DNA of 64,000 nt from Planctomycetota bacterium (GTDB lineage Bacteria; Planctomycetota; UBA8742; UBA2392): assembly GCA_016712285.1 (NCBI GenBank), contig JADJRK010000001.1:2821188-2885187 (forward strand), written 5' to 3'. Both the position numbers and the translations under genes were made by a program. Each line of letters starts with the position of its first letter. Position 1 is the stretch's first letter. The notes below the pieces were generated by a model, which was not told the DNA's origin, did not search any database, and saw nothing but the letters and a program-made list of their open reading frames with translations. Shown in pieces: positions 4,249-28,025 of the stretch.

Positions 4249-5814
4249 ATGCGCTTATTCTTCACCTTGGCCATCTGTGCACTGACCCTGGTCGCCATTT
4301 CCGGCCTGGCCCGGGCAGAGCAGATTCGCCTCTCTGACGGGCGCTACCTGCAGGGCGAAGTCGCCGAGGTCAAGGAAGACGGCTTTGTCTTCAAGCTGAC
4401 CGATACCGGCGGCAAGGTGTTCCTGCGCTGGAGCCAGGTCGATGCCGGCTTGAAGAAGCGCCTGACGAACGACAAAGACCCGGACGAAGGGCTGAACCTG
4501 GAAGTCATGGTGCCCGGTGCACGCCTTGAGCTGATCGACGGCACGATTTACGAGGGCAACATCACGCAGGTCGGCGGCGGCTACAAGGTGGTCAACCGCG
4601 ACTTCGCCAAGGGCAGAACGATCGCGGATGCGGACGTGGTCGAAGAAGGCTACATCACCGACATCATGATCGACGCCTCGTCGATGATGGTCGAAAGCGA
4701 AGTGCTCAAGCTGGCTGAAGATGAGCGCTCACCGCTTGAGACAGCGCGCCAGTTCTACGAGATGGCACGCATCGCCGACAACCTGGGCCTGTACATGGAG
4801 GCCAAGGACTTTGTCACGCTGGCGCTGGCCGCCGGCCCCGATGCCAAGCTGGAAGCCCGCCTTACCGCATACGACGCGACGCTGGACGAGCTGATCCGGC
4901 AGAAGGGCCTGCTGACCGCGCTGGCCGGTGCGCGCCAGCTTGCCAAGAAGAAGAAGTTCCAGACCGCACTGGATGTGCTGACCAACGCCAAGAACGAGTA
5001 CAAGCCCACCGAGACCGTGCTGGCCAAGTGGGACCTGACCTACGCCGAGATTGACCTGCAGTTCACGGCCTTTGTCGTCACCGAGTGGTACAAGCAGATG
5101 CGCCCGGTGACCCGCACCAAACTGAAGGAAAAAGGCCTCACCATCAGCGACTGCATCAGCTGGGCGCGGCGCGAGATTGACAACATGATCAGCGCCAAAA
5201 TCGCCGAGCTTGTCGGCAGCACCACCGCCGACGACATGAAAAAGCGCTTCATCCAGCGCTTCAACCTTGAAGCCGAAGGCAAGCTGCGCCTGACCATGAA
5301 GAAGGCCAGCTTTGGCGAGACCGGCTTCTACCAGATCGTCGGCGGGCACCTGCCGATCAACGGCAAGAAGCCCGAGCCTGCGACGCCGACACCCCCGGGC
5401 GGGCGCCCGGGTCCCGGCGGCAGCGGGTCAGGCCCCGGCGGCGACCGCAGCGGCAGCGTGGTCCCCGGTGAAGACATCGGCGACTTCTTGAAGAGCCAGG
5501 GTTTCCAGGACAGCGAAAACAAGGGCGGCGAGCTGCCCGGCGGCATCAAGCCCGAGGACATCCGCGACTTCCTGAAGAAGATCGCCGGCGACGACAGCAA
5601 GTCAGACGGCGAAAAGAAAGACGGCGGCGCACCCGCCATCGGCAAGCAGGACATCTCGCACCTGAAGGTGCCGGCGACTGTGCCGACACTGCAGGAGTGG
5701 TGGGACGGCGCCAGCAGCACCACCAAGGCCAAGTGGCTTGAGGCTTACTATGCCCGCTACGCCGGCACGATGCGCGTGTTTGAACTCGACGACTGGAACG
5801 TGAAGTTCAAGTAA
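4249..5814 (+). CDS. secreted hypothetical protein with Gly/Pro-rich linker
   Basis: 521-aa ORF with N-terminal signal peptide (MRLFFTLAICALTLVAISGLARA) and a low-complexity G/P-rich segment near residue 360; no recognisable catalytic motif. Confidence 0.6.
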   Translation: MRLFFTLAICALTLVAISGLARAEQIRLSDGRYLQGEVAEVKEDGFVFKLTDTGGKVFLRWSQVDAGLKKRLTNDKDPDEGLNLEVMVPGARLELIDGTIYEGNITQVGGGYKVVNRDFAKGRTIADADVVEEGYITDIMIDASSMMVESEVLKLAEDERSPLETARQFYEMARIADNLGLYMEAKDFVTLALAAGPDAKLEARLTAYDATLDELIRQKGLLTALAGARQLAKKKKFQTALDVLTNAKNEYKPTETVLAKWDLTYAEIDLQFTAFVVTEWYKQMRPVTRTKLKEKGLTISDCISWARREIDNMISAKIAELVGSTTADDMKKRFIQRFNLEAEGKLRLTMKKASFGETGFYQIVGGHLPINGKKPEPATPTPPGGRPGPGGSGSGPGGDRSGSVVPGEDIGDFLKSQGFQDSENKGGELPGGIKPEDIRDFLKKIAGDDSKSDGEKKDGGAPAIGKQDISHLKVPATVPTLQEWWDGASSTTKAKWLEAYYARYAGTMRVFELDDWNVKFK

Positions 5815-14596: not shown

Positions 14597-14679
14597 CGCC
14601 CCTGGCGGGGCTTTGGGTCTTTCCGGGCGGTTTACCGGTGGCTTCCGCCACCGGCTATTGGCGGCCGCCCCTGCGGGGC
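14597..14679. repeat. cluster of GC-rich REP-like hairpins next to the IS200-like transposase gene
   Basis: Three short palindromes read from sequence: gcccc-tggc-ggggc, ccggtggc-ttcc-gccaccgg, ccgcccc-tgc-ggggcgg. Confidence 0.45.
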
Positions 14680-14708
14680 GGTACTGCCCTGGCGACATCG
14701 ACGGGCGG

Positions 14709-15239
14709 TCATTCCCGATCGTTTGCCTCGTGGGCGCCGCCGCTTGGCGTGGTGCCCGGTGGCGGCACACCTTCTGAATCGCGCTCGGGCGAAGCTGGGG
14801 GCGCGTCGGGCTCGTCTGTCAGGCCGTGCAGTTCTTTGAACTTGTTCAACTCTTCGGCGAGCGTTTGTTTCTTGTGGTGCTCGGCTTGGTTCTGGATGTA
14901 CTTCTTTGCCTTCTCAATGTGTGAGATGCTGACCGAAAACACGCCGTAGCCTTCCTGCCAGCCGAATTCGTGCCTGGGCCAGGTTTCGTGAATCCACTTT
15001 GACGTGTTAGATTTGATGTCGCGCAGCACGTCTGAAACTGCGTGACGTGGCGCGAACCCGATCAGCAGGTGGGTGTGGTCCTCCACTCCGCCACCTTCGA
15101 GCAATACGCAATCTCGCTTTCGCAGGATGCCGCCAACGTACGGGTAGAGACGTGCGGCGATTTCGGGGACGATCAGCGGTCGCCGATCCTTGCAGGCGAA
15201 GATGGCGTGCAGCGTGACGCTGTGGTACGTGCTTCCCAT
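14709..15239 (-). CDS. IS200/IS605-family Y1 (HuH) transposase, TnpA/RAYT-like
   Basis: Track ORF 14709..15356; HuH motif (EDHTHLLIG), conserved downstream SKW and GYGVFSVS segments, EHHKKQT tail; ATG at 15239 (MGSTYH). A P/G-rich C-terminal tail of about 35 aa is atypical. Confidence 0.7.
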   Translation of the reverse strand: MGSTYHSVTLHAIFACKDRRPLIVPEIAARLYPYVGGILRKRDCVLLEGGGVEDHTHLLIGFAPRHAVSDVLRDIKSNTSKWIHETWPRHEFGWQEGYGVFSVSISHIEKAKKYIQNQAEHHKKQTLAEELNKFKELHGLTDEPDAPPASPERDSEGVPPPGTTPSGGAHEANDRE

Positions 15240-15333
15240 GCACGCACAATAACCGACGTCGCCGGATCTGTCGCCTTTGGAAGGGCTCGGTTCGTGCTTG
15301 TTGCGATGCGGGCGACTTGCTTTCTTGGCGGCT

Positions 15334-15891
15334 ATGCCCGACGCGCATTCTGTCAACCTGCCGGTTCTCCGCCGCCGCTACGCCGACGTGCGGGCCATGT
15401 TGGCGGCTGTGCGCGGGCTGCTGGAAAAGCTGGACTTTGAGGAAATGAAAAAGTCGACCAAGCCGTCGGGACGCAATCTCTGGGAATCGCTTTCGTTCTG
15501 GCTTTGCTACCGCGGGCCCTTCCTGAACATTGTCGAGGGCGTGCCGCACGCCACGTCAGGCGTCATCAATGCCCCGCGCGGCTACACGCTGGAACAGGCA
15601 TGGCAGGCATGGGACGAATCTGTCGCGCGTGCCGACCGGATCATGGCGACGTTTTCTGTCGAGCGCTGGAACACGGACGTGGACTTCTGGATTGACCGTG
15701 AGAAGACGCGCCGCATGAAGGCATGGGAGGTCTTTCTTGCTCACTTCGCCGACCGCCTCGAACACGACTGGCGGATGATGCTTGAGGACATCTGCACCGT
15801 GGGCCACCAGAAGTGGCTGGAAAGCCTGATCGGCGAAGACTGGTACTACTTCCGCGAAGGCGAGAGCCTCAAGGACGTCTACCCGCAGTAG
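15334..15891 (+). CDS. hypothetical protein
   Basis: Track ORF 15277..15891; start taken at ATG 15334 (MPDAHSV); Trp/His-rich helical protein with no secure family assignment. Confidence 0.5.
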   Translation: MPDAHSVNLPVLRRRYADVRAMLAAVRGLLEKLDFEEMKKSTKPSGRNLWESLSFWLCYRGPFLNIVEGVPHATSGVINAPRGYTLEQAWQAWDESVARADRIMATFSVERWNTDVDFWIDREKTRRMKAWEVFLAHFADRLEHDWRMMLEDICTVGHQKWLESLIGEDWYYFREGESLKDVYPQ

Positions 15892-23500: not shown

Positions 23501-23818
23501 TCACCAGCCCATCATGCCAATCATCCAGACAAGCGCACCGCACAGTGCGGGCACCGCCAGCCACGACGCCAGCAGGTAGTTTGGTGCCAGCGGGGTCTGG
23601 TGGCGGGCCAGCACCACGACGCGTTTCCCGCGGCGGTACTCCACCGGCTCAGGGTAGGGCCGGACGCTGCCAGCCGGCGGGAGGTTCAGCAGCAGTTCGT
23701 CGCTTGGGCGGCGTATCGGCCCGCCCTTGGCAACGCGCGGCGCGCGGGCCACGAAGTAGCCCTGGAACGTATCCAAGTCCGACGAGTCGGCTGGCATGTC
23801 GAGGAAGCAATACGCCAT
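23501..23818 (-). CDS. small hypothetical protein with C-terminal TM helix (doubtful)
   Basis: Part of track ORF 23501..23863 from ATG 23818 (MAYCFLD); hydrophobic C-terminus; could be a non-coding divergent promoter region instead. Confidence 0.3.
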   Translation of the reverse strand: MAYCFLDMPADSSDLDTFQGYFVARAPRVAKGGPIRRPSDELLLNLPPAGSVRPYPEPVEYRRGKRVVVLARHQTPLAPNYLLASWLAVPALCGALVWMIGMMGW

Positions 23819-23951
23819 TAGTGACCTCAACCCCAGTTTCCCACATGAAGTCCCCGCCGCCAAATGGATTCGCGTTGGAACATGAACAGTGTTCAGCCCT
23901 TACGAATCTGACGCTATCATGGGCCGATCGATTGGCAGAAACGAGGGCGTG

Positions 23952-24440
23952 ATGTCGGCGGAATTGACTCTTCTGTTTCTAGAAAAGCGCGTGGAAGCCT
24001 CGCGGCTTTGCGCCTCTATCACCGAACCGTTTGCCACGGGCAGCGAGCCCGTGAAGCCGCAGCAACTGGCCGATGACTACGAACAGGTCTGCCAGGAGCT
24101 TGAGGGCACCTACGAAGACCTCAAGAAGCTCAACGACGGCTTGCTGAAAGACAAGACGCTGGAAGCGGGCGACATTCGGCATCTGCGTGGGCGCATTGCC
24201 ACGGCAGTGACTGAGGTGGCGCGTGCCGCGCAGGATATGGCGGCGCAGATCAGGTTTTTCGAAGCCATGAACCCCAACGATGCCGCGACCACCAAGCCCG
24301 CGCTGGACCACTTTGACCGCATCGATAAGTCTACGCGCGAATTCACGGTACCCGACGAGCCCGAAGACGGAGCCGAGCTGGCCCCCGCCGAAGACACCGG
24401 CATGGCCCACGAAGAAGACGTCGACCCGATGATGATGTAG
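23952..24440 (+). CDS. hypothetical protein, acidic and helical (cassette gene 1)
   Basis: Track ORF 23889..24440; start at ATG 23952 (MSAELTL); first gene of a tightly packed four-gene + strand cassette. Confidence 0.45.
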   Translation: MSAELTLLFLEKRVEASRLCASITEPFATGSEPVKPQQLADDYEQVCQELEGTYEDLKKLNDGLLKDKTLEAGDIRHLRGRIATAVTEVARAAQDMAAQIRFFEAMNPNDAATTKPALDHFDRIDKSTREFTVPDEPEDGAELAPAEDTGMAHEEDVDPMMM

Positions 24441-24446
24441 GCGGTA

Positions 24447-24884
24447 ATGCGCATGATGGCACATCCCATAATCCAGGCGGTGCTTCTATGCGACGGTGCG
24501 TGGAAAGTCGGCGACAAGTGGACGATTCAGGGCATTTTCAATCGGATTACGAGCAAGGCATATCCATCGCTGTTTCCGAAGTTTTTCATCTATGTAAATC
24601 TTGTGGAGTTGATGATCCGGAACGGCACCAGTTTGGCGGTAGAGATCCGACATTCCTCACTGGAGGAGATTGAATCGCCATCGGGCCCGGTCTTTCGAGG
24701 CACCATGGACTTCTCCCTGGGCGGCGAGCCGGGTACAATGGTCGGGCCGGTGGGGTTTGATTTTGCAGTGCCGGTAGACGAAGTCGAGTTTCCCCACGCT
24801 GGCACCTATGACCTAGTGTTTCTTGCCGGAGACACGCTCTTAGGGTTATGGACTTTGCGGGCAGAAGTGGTGAAGCCAGAATGA
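24447..24884 (+). CDS. hypothetical protein (cassette gene 2)
   Basis: 145-aa ORF in the lowest-GC part of the cassette (about 54% by eye); stop overlaps the next start as ATGA (24881-24884). Confidence 0.5.
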   Translation: MRMMAHPIIQAVLLCDGAWKVGDKWTIQGIFNRITSKAYPSLFPKFFIYVNLVELMIRNGTSLAVEIRHSSLEEIESPSGPVFRGTMDFSLGGEPGTMVGPVGFDFAVPVDEVEFPHAGTYDLVFLAGDTLLGLWTLRAEVVKPE

Positions 24885-25138
24885 AGCCAAAGGAAGTCCA
24901 AGTATCTGAGGCTATCGCGACGCCGGCCTTTCATGCCCGTGTGGTTGTGACGGCTGAGTCCAACCCCGCGCGCGACGTTCTTTCAGCGGCCCAGCGCGCT
25001 GCGATACGGGTTGAGGCTGAGCGGCTTCTGCGCGAGAGAAACAATGCGCGCTTTCGCGCGCTGCGCGAGAGGGAAGAGTCGGAATCCGACCAGTCATCGT
25101 CACGCCTGTATCGCCGAGAGGCTCTGAACCTGGACTAA
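24881..25138 (+). CDS. small basic protein, candidate antitoxin (cassette gene 3)
   Basis: Part of track ORF 24848..25138 from ATG 24881; 85 aa, Arg-rich helical; ends 8 nt before the MazF/PemK-like ORF. Confidence 0.4.
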   Translation: MKPKEVQVSEAIATPAFHARVVVTAESNPARDVLSAAQRAAIRVEAERLLRERNNARFRALREREESESDQSSSRLYRREALNLD

Positions 25139-25146
25139 CACCTGCA

Positions 25147-25497
25147 ATGGCGCGACTTCGTAAGGGCGACGTAGTCTGGTTCAGCTTTCCCCGCGTAGTT
25201 CCGCCCGGAGCCGACGCTGCCACCAAGACCGAAGACATGCGTCCCGCACTGGTGCTGCAGACCATCGGTGTCAACGTAGTCGTCGGCATGCTCACCACCA
25301 AGGACTACACCGACCAAGGTGCGCTGAAACTTACCCCCGCCGACTATGCCGCTGGGGGATCCGACGAAGTCAGCTTTTTCCGCCCTGATCGCCTCTGGAC
25401 AGATCATGAAGATTGGGCGGAAAGCTGGGTAGGGCGTCTGCAAAGCCAGAAGCTGACGCAGTGCTACGACGCGATCGATCGCTTCCTCCGTTCCTGA
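25147..25497 (+). CDS. MazF/PemK-family toxin-like protein (cassette gene 4)
   Basis: 116 aa; RKGDVVWFSFP, RPALVLQ and a Thr/Lys-rich loop match the spacing of the PemK/MazF fold (compare GDVYFADL...RPVLVIQ in EndoA); family call from motif pattern only. Confidence 0.6.
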   Translation: MARLRKGDVVWFSFPRVVPPGADAATKTEDMRPALVLQTIGVNVVVGMLTTKDYTDQGALKLTPADYAAGGSDEVSFFRPDRLWTDHEDWAESWVGRLQSQKLTQCYDAIDRFLRS

Positions 25498-25554: not shown

Positions 25555-26496
25555 ATGCCCAACTACTTCTCTCGAGCAAAAATCTATGTCGTCGGCCGGC
25601 AGGTGATGCCCCCCGACGAAGTGCAGCGCTTTCTGGATGACGAGGGCGCGCTTTGGCAGACCGACACCGACAACCCCGCCCAGCGCATCCCCGAGCTTGC
25701 GGGCCGCATCTGCTACATGAGCTTTGGCGACAAGCAGGGCCGCAAAGACAACGCCAGCTACCTCGGCCACATCCTGCAAGTCGGCCACGGCAGCGTCCTT
25801 GAGCACACCGTCTTCAGCCTGGTGTTCACCGGCATCTCGCGCAGCCTGACCCATGAGCTGATTCGCCACCGCGCCGGCTTTGGCTACAGCCAGCTTTCAC
25901 AGCGCTACGTCGATGAGTCTGAGGCCAACTTTATCGTGCCGCCGGCGCTGCAGGGTGACGCCGCGCTGGAAGCAAAGCTGCGCGAGTTCTGCGACGTCAG
26001 CCTGAAGGTCTACGGTGAGCTGACAGACGCGCTGGCCGAAAAATACGCGACGCCGCACGGGCTGGTGGACTTCGCCCTGCGGGAAGAGATGCTCACTGAG
26101 GGGGAAACCGGAAAGTTCTCGCTCAGTGAGCCCGTCGCGGGCCGCAACGCGCTCAGCGTTGACGCGTGGCGCAAGTTCGTCGCCGACGACGCCGATGCCG
26201 CCAAGGCCTTCAAGAAGCTGACCGTGCGTGCCCGCCGCAAGGCTGCGCGCGAAGCCGCCCGCGCCGTGCTGCCCAACGCCACCGAAACCAAGATCTTCGT
26301 GACCGGCAACGCGCGCGCCTGGCGCCACTTCATCGAGCTGCGCGGCGACATTCACGCCGAGGCCGAGATTCGCGCGCTGGCATGCGACGTCTGCCGCCTG
26401 CTGCTGAAAGAAGCACCGAACCTGTTCGGCGATTACGAAGTGGTCAAGCTCGGCGACGGCAGCGAACGCACGCGCACCAAGCACCGCAAGGTCTAA
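25555..26496 (+). CDS. thyX: FAD-dependent thymidylate synthase
   Basis: ThyX signature RHRxxxxxS (THELIRHRAGFGYSQLSQRY) and overall ThyX-like sequence. Confidence 0.85.
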   Translation: MPNYFSRAKIYVVGRQVMPPDEVQRFLDDEGALWQTDTDNPAQRIPELAGRICYMSFGDKQGRKDNASYLGHILQVGHGSVLEHTVFSLVFTGISRSLTHELIRHRAGFGYSQLSQRYVDESEANFIVPPALQGDAALEAKLREFCDVSLKVYGELTDALAEKYATPHGLVDFALREEMLTEGETGKFSLSEPVAGRNALSVDAWRKFVADDADAAKAFKKLTVRARRKAAREAARAVLPNATETKIFVTGNARAWRHFIELRGDIHAEAEIRALACDVCRLLLKEAPNLFGDYEVVKLGDGSERTRTKHRKV

Positions 26497-26695
26497 GAGG
26501 CTGATTCAAAAACCTCTCGCGGACCGGTTTGGGCGGGGCACTTCGCATCTCTGCGTCGCGCTCCCTGCGCCATATCACCAGGATATGGCTCAGTCGCGCG
26601 CCTTGATCTGCTCGCGCCGCGCTCCAAACCGGCCTCGCTCAGGGTTCTGAAACAGCCTCTAAGCGCGAAAACGTAATTTGGGCCTGCACATCGCC

Positions 26696-27109
26696 ATGAC
26701 CAAAGTAGTATTGGGTGGCAGGCCGCGCCGCGGGCGCGAAACAGGAGACCGGACCATCGACACCCTTGAAGCCGCGCGCATCGCATATGCCGCATGCGCT
26801 GAGAAACGAGCCACCGATATCCGCATCCTCGAAGTCCGGGGGCTCACCATTGTCGCCGATTATTTCGTCATCTGCACCGCCAGCAGCTCGGTGAACGCCA
26901 AGGCCATCGCCGACGAAGTACGCGACCAGTTGAAACTGCGCGGCAAACGCACGCCCATCGGCATTGAAGGCCGCGAAAGCGGCTGGTGGGTGCTGGTGGA
27001 CTTCGGCGACCTGATTGTCCACGTCTTCCAGTCCGATGCGCGCGAGTACTACGGCATCGACGAAACCTGGGCAGATGCCCGCGTCGTCGAACAGTCGGAA
27101 GCCGCCTAG
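26696..27109 (+). CDS. rsfS: ribosome silencing factor RsfS (Iojap-like)
   Basis: Track ORF 26678..27109; conserved core ADYFVICTASSSVNAKAIADEV...WVLVDFGDLIVHVF typical of RsfS. Confidence 0.8.
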   Translation: MTKVVLGGRPRRGRETGDRTIDTLEAARIAYAACAEKRATDIRILEVRGLTIVADYFVICTASSSVNAKAIADEVRDQLKLRGKRTPIGIEGRESGWWVLVDFGDLIVHVFQSDAREYYGIDETWADARVVEQSEAA

Positions 27110-27140
27110 GCCAGCCCCAAAACCCCGTATTTCGCCCTGA

Positions 27141-28025
27141 ATGCGCACTTTTGCTGAAGTGTTTGATGCCTATTTGACGTTTAAAGTAATGCAGGCGGAG
27201 GCGAATGTGGCGCCCGACTTGAACATCTCGCACCATGACGTCATCCGCGCGCTCCGGATCTACTGGCGCCATGCCTGGCCTGCTGGATCGGGCATCTGCC
27301 CGGTGCTGCCGGACTGGTCTGACCTGTCGCTACCCGAAGTGCTCAACCGCTTTGCTGATGAAACCGGCCGCACGGCACATGCCTGCCGCCGGTTTGTGCT
27401 TCGGCTTGGCAACTACCTGTACCCGCACATGAAGTTCGCCATTGAGCAGTGCGTGTACGGCGGCGGCTTCTACTTTCTGGCCGACTGCCACGACGACGCC
27501 GGCGCACCCCGCGCCGAAGACAGCGGCCAGTGGCAGGTTCTGCGCACACGCAACTTCGAGATCAAGCTGGCGATTGAAGCCGGCTGGGAAGACGCCTCAC
27601 TGCCCACATTTCGAACCACCAGCGAAGCCGCCACCGGCACCTTCAAGCGCCCCGGCACGGATCACCGGCGCATCTTGATTGTCGACGACGAGCCCGCCAA
27701 CGCCGCGTTGACCGACGCCATGCTGCGCGCCGAGGGATTTGGCACTGAAACCGCCGCCAGCGGCGCCGACGCACTGCACCGCGTGAATGAGCAAAAACCC
27801 GACCTGGTAGTCTCAGACTACGAAATGCCCGGCTTGACCGGCCGCGATGTCGCACGGCGCCTCAAAGCCGACAAGGACACGCGGCAGATCCCGGTACTGA
27901 TCTGTACGTATGCCGACGTCTCGGAAGCCGACCTTCGACCTGCCGACGCCCTGTTGCGCCGGCCTTTTTCTCGCGAAGACCTGAGCGCCGCCGTCGGTCG
28001 CCTGCTGGGCCGGAGGGTTTCGTGA
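27141..28025 (+). CDS. response regulator with C-terminal receiver domain and N-terminal domain of unknown function
   Basis: C-terminal REC motifs (RILIVDDEP, phospho-acceptor in DLVVSDYEMPGLTG, KADKDTRQIPVLICT); N-terminal about 160 aa has no recognised motif. Confidence 0.7.
   Translation: MRTFAEVFDAYLTFKVMQAEANVAPDLNISHHDVIRALRIYWRHAWPAGSGICPVLPDWSDLSLPEVLNRFADETGRTAHACRRFVLRLGNYLYPHMKFAIEQCVYGGGFYFLADCHDDAGAPRAEDSGQWQVLRTRNFEIKLAIEAGWEDASLPTFRTTSEAATGTFKRPGTDHRRILIVDDEPANAALTDAMLRAEGFGTETAASGADALHRVNEQKPDLVVSDYEMPGLTGRDVARRLKADKDTRQIPVLICTYADVSEADLRPADALLRRPFSREDLSAAVGRLLGRRVS

Follow-up and report, generated by a model that had tools for sequence, protein, structure and literature searches.

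The MazF/PemK toxins are among the best-studied effectors of toxin-antitoxin systems. They are known from two-gene operons, in which they are paired with antitoxins of the AbrB, ribbon-helix-helix (RHH) or helix-turn-helix (HTH) type. In type II systems, the antitoxin is usually encoded directly before the toxin, and antitoxins usually evolve fastest. Systems that need a third protein besides toxin and antitoxin are also known: in the toxin-antitoxin-chaperone (TAC) systems, this protein is a SecB-like chaperone, and the toxins belong to the HigB, MqsR, HicA or ADP-ribosyltransferase types rather than to MazF. Here, we analysed a locus in a 64,000-nucleotide stretch of a Planctomycetota genome (contig JADJRK010000001.1, positions 2,821,188 to 2,885,187), hereafter called the window, in which four small genes, g1 to g4, precede thyX (Table 1). 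Three of them, g2, g3 and g4, form a conserved unit, which is also found in unrelated genomes and behaves like a mobile element. We consider the chances about even that this triad is a horizontally moving, tripartite toxin-antitoxin-like module located between a resident gene, g1, and thyX.

A first-pass annotation, made from the sequence alone, had described the four open reading frames (ORFs) as one compact + strand cassette. The packing it reported was borne out: as read from the sequence, 6 nt separate the stop codon of g1 from the ATG of g2, g2 and g3 overlap in an ATGA, and the ATG of g4 lies 8 nt beyond the stop codon of g3. All four genes are kept between a PALP gene and thyX in the close relatives L007, L008, L009, L011 and L012 (homologous loci are designated by L numbers). 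The order of a DUF6941 gene, a gene for a protein of 85-101 aa and a gene for a PemK-like protein of 110-143 aa was found in five further neighbourhoods, whose flanking genes are unlike those of the window. The comparison of synteny among relatives, to which the first-pass annotation had pointed, therefore gives six neighbourhoods with the order g2-g3-g4, and g1 is present only in the lineage of the window; the triads of L010, L015, L017, L018 and L021 have no counterpart of g1 upstream. The triad genes are tightly coupled in all contexts, with overlaps or gaps of at most 18 nt, and the GC content of the host loci ranges from 0.48 to 0.665. In two of the six neighbourhoods (L010 and L021), the triad lies directly 3' of a tRNA, and in L020 a DUF6941 gene directly follows a tyrosine integrase.

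The composition of the genes sets the triad apart from its surroundings. The reported AT-richness of 24447-24884 was confirmed: this is g2, the GC content of which is 0.541 vs 0.635 for the whole window. At third codon positions (GC3), the values are 0.64 for g2, 0.65 for g3 and 0.68 for g4, vs 0.76 for g1, 0.84 for thyX and 0.76 for rsfS, so that g1 is host-like in this respect.

All four are real coding genes under purifying selection. Between the window and L007, the ratio of nonsynonymous to synonymous substitution rates (dN/dS) is 0.02 for g1, 0.06 for g2, 0.19 for g3 and 0.07 for g4. In a sister lineage (L001-L006 and L013; for example, L002 6311-6994), g2, g3 and g4 are all pseudogenes. 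This decayed lineage comprises at least 18 contigs, plus the metagenome-assembled genome (MAG) Planctomycetota PLA1 (JAMQHL010000032.1). Within the decayed g2, a deletion between two TGGAC microhomologies leaves a remnant of 29 codons, the start codon of g3 has changed from ATG to ATA, and g4 carries a 1-nt deletion by which the C-terminal helix is replaced or truncated. In these genomes, g1 and thyX are nevertheless intact and strongly constrained (dN/dS of 0.02 and 0.03, respectively), and the dN/dS of g3 has relaxed to 0.48. As g2, g3 and g4 are broken while g1 and thyX remain constrained, the module is dispensable, is kept or lost as a whole and does not depend on g1. The four-gene cassette thus has to be reduced to three genes, since g1 is absent elsewhere, is host-like in GC3 and stays intact where the other three are pseudogenised. 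The suggestion of an atypical cassette with extra components is thereby supported in part: it fits g2-g3-g4, with g2 as the proposed extra component, and fails for g1. The first-pass annotation had also considered that the genes might be conserved housekeeping genes. They are not, given the six unrelated neighbourhoods, some of which are adjacent to a tRNA or a recombinase, and the decay in the sister lineage.

The family looks rare. Word-indexed homologue searches, even with a profile, returned three close relatives each for g2 and g4, a pattern scan of GTDB genomes returned one locus only, in the MAG PLA1, and scans of JGI metagenomes and IMG/VR returned nothing or almost nothing. The relatedness of the components is discordant: between the window and L021, the identity is 27% for g2 and 49% for g4, and between the window and L015 it is 37% for g2 and 41% for g4. 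This suggests either component exchange between modules or very unequal rates. A reading of g2 and g4 as phage structural genes, a beta-sandwich and SH3-like pair, was rejected, since phage genes are found in none of the contexts.

With regard to g4, the pattern RKGDVVW...RPALVLQ, which had been taken as a sign of a PemK/MazF-like protein, is present in the sequence, and the assignment stood up to profile searches. The match to the Pfam family PemK_toxin (PF02452) is marginal, at 23.1 bits for a curated cut-off of 23.1 (E 9.1e-5, profile positions 2-108 of 109). The homologues of L021 and L010 reach 33.3 and 28.6 bits, that of L015 reaches 19.5 bits, which is below the cut-off, and those of L017 and L018 have no match to PF02452. 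The L018 homologue matches PHROG 1936, 'MazF-like growth inhibitor' (E 3.2e-7), and a tblastn search with the L021 homologue hit a Methanohalobium plasmid at a toxin annotated as PemK/MazF. Sequence searches of g4 and g2 against the PDB, and of the window proteins against NCBIfam and PHROGs, returned nothing or almost nothing. As the Pfam score of g4 is marginal, family members were gathered from related loci for profile-profile comparison. Eight g4-family sequences were compared in hhalign with eight toxins (EcMazF, ChpBK, Kid, EndoA, SaMazF, MtMazF4, MtMazF6 and MtMazF9), each of which was validated against PF02452 at 54-131 bits. The alignment is full length, with a probability of 96.5%, an E value of 8.8e-10 and 103 aligned columns; with seven sequences, the probability is 94.1%. 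The controls gave 0.8% for the reversed template, 0.1% for CcdB and 0.1% for DUF6941. The residues R32-P33 of g4 align with R29-P30 of Escherichia coli MazF, and R32 is invariant in all eight sequences. Judged by these profiles, g4 is a divergent member of the PemK/MazF family. The acidic isoelectric point (pI) of g4 was considered as an objection to a ribonuclease (RNase) function and was rejected, as ChpBK and EndoA are equally acidic.

In some g4 homologues (L010 1005-1415, L015 1023-1448 and L017 2127-2558), about 25 inserted residues (AIDxRLxxAE...) separate the first strand from the Arg-Pro motif. The insertion, which, judged by eye, is expected to be helical, is located at the site of the MazF beta1-beta2 active-site loop, and it is not present in the proteins of the window, L018 and L021. 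In GenBank, all four genes of the window (MBK8207464-67) are annotated as hypothetical proteins, and g4 is called as a protein of 86 aa with an internal Met start (MBK8207467.1). The call of 116 aa is the better one, because the shorter call removes the RKGDVVW strand, which is conserved, under purifying selection and aligned with MazF beta1.

The product of g3 exhibits an N-terminal beta-strand motif (hVVVT..P), a long Arg/Glu-rich segment, which from reading by eye is expected to be helical, and a Glu-rich C-terminal stretch followed by R-x-x-R-P/R-E-A-L. These motifs are common to the aligned middle proteins of the triads (85-101 aa), and the g3 homologues are alignable and occupy the same middle position in all six contexts. 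The protein has no match in Pfam, NCBIfam, PADLOC, PHROGs or PDB sequences. The first-pass annotation had remarked that this protein does not resemble MazE/AbrB antitoxins, which proved correct and extends to RHH and other known antitoxins: hhalign of g3 against MazE, Kis and EndoAI gave at most 0.3%, that is, no similarity; the g3-family profile had no significant match among PDB sequences; and neither g3 nor its homologues matched AbrB/MazE, RHH, HTH, Phd/YefM or any other DNA-binding family in Pfam, NCBIfam and the PDB. The mean pairwise identity among homologues is 28% for g3 vs 40% for g2 and g4, which makes g3 the fastest-evolving member of the triad. The pI varies from 4.8 to 9.7 among homologues, and the g3 of the window, at 9.7, is basic.

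The two proteins upstream of g3 had been described as lacking a recognisable family. This remains so for g1, and it does not hold for g2, which matches DUF6941 (PF22091) in Pfam with 48.6 bits for a cut-off of 27. An exhaustive HMMER search among 1.84 billion sequences found 172 DUF6941 representatives at E <= 1e-3, 10 of which are at E <= 1e-10. For g2, AlphaFold2 (AF2) predicts an all-beta fold of eight strands, with low to moderate confidence (predicted local distance difference test, pLDDT, 57.6; predicted template modelling score, pTM, 0.55). Foldseek of this model against the PDB returned nothing significant, the DUF6941 profile had no significant match among PDB sequences, with sub-threshold immunoglobulin (Ig)-like matches only, and g2 had no match to SecB. 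From the model, g2 is predicted to be a beta-sandwich (Ig-like or arrestin-like) protein-interaction module. It is acidic, with a pI of 5.0-6.6. No informative domain fusions of DUF6941 were found, and tblastn searches of DUF6941 proteins against plasmids and phages returned nothing or almost nothing.

The contigs of more distant DUF6941 proteins from the HMMER search were inspected for neighbours. P0048 has only an ORF of 49 aa downstream, and P0017 has an unrelated gene downstream. As these distant proteins have other neighbours, the link to PemK is a property of one DUF6941 clade, and DUF6941 is not intrinsically a toxin-antitoxin domain. In L024-L027 (5001-5582) and L020 (831-1467), a distant DUF6941 gene is followed by an ORF of 49-50 aa and by no PemK-like gene. 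By eye, the small ORF of L020 resembles the N-terminal strand region of g3; the contig ends 11 nt beyond it. A pair consisting of DUF6941 and a small protein may exist independently of the toxin. Several public gene calls of DUF6941 proteins, namely P0013 (L021 5001-5597), P0027 and P0038, start inside an upstream tRNA, and their N-termini carry the translated T-arm signatures GSNP and VRFP. In L021, a tRNA-Val (5067-5142) falls within the called DUF6941 ORF, and the true start is probably near 5175.

Compared with MazEF, PemIK (Kis-Kid), ChpBIK and EndoAI-EndoA, the triad has several features in common: the full-length alignment of g4 with these toxins, the Arg-Pro motif and a conserved Thr as a candidate for the catalytic one, a small and tightly coupled gene before g4, and a patchy, mobile-like chromosomal distribution. 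In contrast, g4 is very divergent, g3 exhibits no domain of the AbrB/MazE, RHH, HTH or Phd type, DUF6941 invariably accompanies the pair as a third conserved gene, and some g4 homologues carry the beta1-beta2 loop insertion. Among the features of canonical type II systems, a patchy, mobile-like distribution and dispensability are found here, whereas a DNA-binding antitoxin and a two-gene architecture are not. Because it has no DNA-binding antitoxin and comprises a third gene, the triad is not a canonical type II pair. The TAC systems (HigBA-SecB-like of Mycobacterium tuberculosis; CmdTAC) also consist of three tightly linked genes and provide an analogy for g2 as a stabiliser of g3, in which the N-terminal beta-strand motif of g3 is a candidate, and only a candidate, for a chaperone-addiction segment. 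Nevertheless, g2 is an all-beta DUF6941 protein with no match to SecB, the putative toxin is MazF-like, and the accessory gene comes first. As the SecB-like protein is missing, the toxin class is different and the gene order is different, the triad is not a TAC system. The omega-epsilon-zeta and PaaR-PaaA-ParE systems have the same order of first gene, antitoxin and toxin, with a toxin of a classical family, but their first gene encodes a DNA-binding repressor (RHH/HTH), whereas g2 is a predicted beta-sandwich and matches no DNA-binding family.

A MazF-like domain in a non-canonical, multi-gene context is also found in type II Gabija, a defence operon in which the split MazF-like effector GajC is partnered by the UvrD-type helicase GajB (PMC13069673). 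GajC (PMC13069673) exhibits an insertion near the beta1-beta2 active-site loop, as do the g4 homologues of L010, L015 and L017; in contrast, there is no helicase at the triad, and the g4 of the window has no large insertion. PADLOC-DB v2 returned no match for the proteins of the window, for all three triad proteins of L018 and L021, or for g4 of L010, L015 and L017. A defence role of the triad is possible. In full-text literature searches, no paper was found that names DUF6941 or PF22091 or that describes a three-gene MazF/PemK system of this arrangement, so that the three-gene unit is apparently undescribed.

Based on these observations, we propose the following mechanism for the module. The g4 protein, with its putative MazF/PemK fold, Arg-Pro motif and invariant Thr, would most likely be a sequence-specific endoribonuclease that arrests growth when free. 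The g3 protein would most likely bind and block g4 through its acidic/Arg-Pro-Glu-Ala-Leu tail, in the manner of the tails of MazE and Kis, but its fold would be unrelated to theirs, and no DNA-binding domain can be recognised in it. The g2 protein would be an obligatory third partner, translationally coupled to g3 and most likely binding its N-terminal beta-strand region. Its task would be either to keep the antitoxin stable or in place, much as the chaperone of TAC systems does, or to couple the release of the antitoxin to a trigger. We infer the toxicity and RNase activity of g4, the choice of its neutralising partner and the role of g2 from sequence. In a bolder version, which we consider rather doubtful, DUF6941 would be a third component of a new kind for toxins of the MazF type, a beta-sandwich that holds the novel antitoxin g3 and senses a trigger, such as a phage protein, within a tripartite abortive-infection or toxin-antitoxin family that tRNA-targeting islands would have carried into several bacterial phyla.

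Several observations speak against a tripartite toxin-antitoxin-like module. The Pfam score of the g4 of the window lies exactly at the cut-off, and the g4-family profile, in an HMM-to-sequence (hidden Markov model) search of PDB sequences, retrieves no solved MazF. Structure prediction, which the first-pass annotation had proposed for all four proteins, gave a weak all-beta model for g2 and failed for g4: with an alignment of three sequences, AF2 reached a pLDDT of 40 and a pTM of 0.29, which is unusable, and the fold assignment of g4 therefore draws on sequence profiles alone. The alignment of the catalytic Thr is ambiguous, as T55 is paired with MazF T52 in the profile alignments, but the invariant residue of the g4 family is T50. 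T50/T51 is the more likely equivalent of MazF T52, because the loop after N43 is shorter. Moreover, a DNA-binding domain, as type II systems usually have, is missing from both g2 and g3, and no operator palindrome upstream of g2 is shared by the seven loci compared. The roles of g2 and g3 are assigned from position, evolutionary rate and composition, and more distant DUF6941 proteins occur with no PemK neighbour.

The simplest alternative is an ordinary two-gene pair of the PemIK/MazEF type, formed by g3 and g4, with g2 and g1 as unrelated neighbours. The adjacency and sizes of g3 and g4 fit a classical type II system, and g4 is PemK-like. However, g2 precedes g3-g4 in all six contexts, with frames overlapping or nearly abutting, it is strongly constrained (dN/dS 0.06) and it is lost along with g3 and g4 in the decayed lineage; in addition, g3 is unlike any known antitoxin partner of MazF. 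This pair is the rival most weakened by the synteny data, and we regard it as very unlikely. It is easier to conceive that the triad is genuine and the roles are swapped, with g2 neutralising g4 and g3 acting as a small regulator or adaptor, by analogy with omega-epsilon-zeta and PaaR-PaaA-ParE. The conservation of the triad, the acidity of g2 and the co-occurrence of the g2 deletion with the inactivation of g4 in the decayed lineage are consistent with such an exchange, and the g3 of the window is basic, as a nucleic-acid binder might be. Nevertheless, this charge is not conserved among g3 homologues, no DNA-binding family is matched, and both the position of g3 directly upstream of the putative toxin and its conserved acidic C-terminal tail, which resembles a toxin-binding tail, favour g3 as the antitoxin, although none of these points is decisive. 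We consider swapped roles unlikely.

The module could also serve in anti-phage abortive infection, with the DUF6941 beta-sandwich sensing a phage component and releasing the MazF-like effector. This is compatible with a tripartite toxin-antitoxin-like module. Beta-sandwich domains are typical protein-recognition modules, the sites are island-like (tRNA, integrase, recombinase), the distribution is patchy, one lineage has decayed and the relatedness of the components is shuffled. MazF-like effectors occur in validated defence systems, such as the GajC of type II Gabija (PMC13069673). As none of the components searched matched PADLOC and the contexts inspected showed no defence genes nearby, we give abortive infection a low probability. 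Finally, the three genes could be a conserved operon that is not toxic and serves neither addiction nor defence, its PemK-fold protein having taken on a different task with g2 and g3 as partners. The stable chromosomal position across the lineage of the window, the housekeeping neighbours in L017 and L021, the weak PemK match and the absence of a DNA-binding antitoxin would fit such an operon. It is hard to reconcile with flanking genes that differ in every lineage and are tRNA- or recombinase-adjacent in some, with a GC3 below that of host genes, with the loss of all three genes, seemingly uncompensated, in a sister lineage of at least 18 contigs, and with the conservation of the Arg and the candidate Thr that correspond to MazF catalytic residues. 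A non-toxic operon is thus scarcely probable.

If confirmed, the tripartite toxin-antitoxin-like module would place DUF6941 in a functional context for the first time, introduce a new type of antitoxin and provide a simple system for the control of a MazF-like toxin by a third protein. Its practical value is modest, as the family looks rare and the evidence is computational.

Table 1. Genes and other features of the window, and the neighbourhoods of the triad in other loci.
Feature	Position	Strand	Description
g1	23952-24440	+	162 aa from ATG; an alternative GTG start at 23889 gives 183 aa
g2	24447-24884	+	145 aa, DUF6941 protein, first gene of the conserved triad
g3	24881-25138	+	85 aa, middle gene of the triad, proposed antitoxin
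g4	25147-25497	+	116 aa, divergent PemK/MazF-like, proposed endoribonuclease-type toxin
Small ORF, left flank	23501-23818	-	105-108 aa in relatives
thyX, right flank	25555-26496		
Acido-Lenti-1 RNA match	14635-14680	+	Rfam, 38.4 bits vs gathering score 37
ORF near the RNA match	14709-15356	-	resembles IS200/Y1-type (HUH) transposase
L010			tRNA 3' end (T-arm, acceptor stem and CCA in the first 30 nt) before the triad; serine-recombinase fragment after it
L014-L016			triad among different flanking genes
L017			triad between cofH and DUF1844/pheA-like genes
L018			triad among different flanking genes
L021-L023			triad directly after tRNA-Val, downstream of the his operon, on a 600-kb contig

The product of g1 is acidic (pI 4.4) and is probably a coiled-coil protein, judging from sub-threshold coiled-coil matches; nothing significant was found for it in Pfam, NCBIfam, PADLOC, PHROGs or PDB sequences. 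Its membership of the module was considered and rejected, as it bears no similarity to the gene upstream of the L018 triad and is absent elsewhere. It is probably co-transcribed with the triad.

On the left flank, two minus-strand genes are located, a small ORF and a gene for a PALP-family enzyme. The small ORF is conserved in relatives and divergently transcribed with respect to g1, a family search with its product returned no match, and in every relative it shares 4 nt with the start of the PALP-family gene that follows it. On the right flank, thyX is followed by rsfS and a response regulator. These three genes belong to a conserved run (25555-28025 and beyond; L001 8408-12386) that also comprises two small unknown genes and a dUTPase/dCTP deaminase gene, so that thyX and the dUTPase gene are grouped around genes of translation and regulation. 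In the window, neither direct repeats nor terminators were found to delimit the module at its flanks.

Away from the locus, the window contains a match to the Rfam Acido-Lenti-1 RNA, about 30 nt past the 3' end of a minus-strand ORF, the L011 equivalent of which is annotated as PF01797 Y1_Tnp. The match may be a transposon-end or transposase-associated RNA element.

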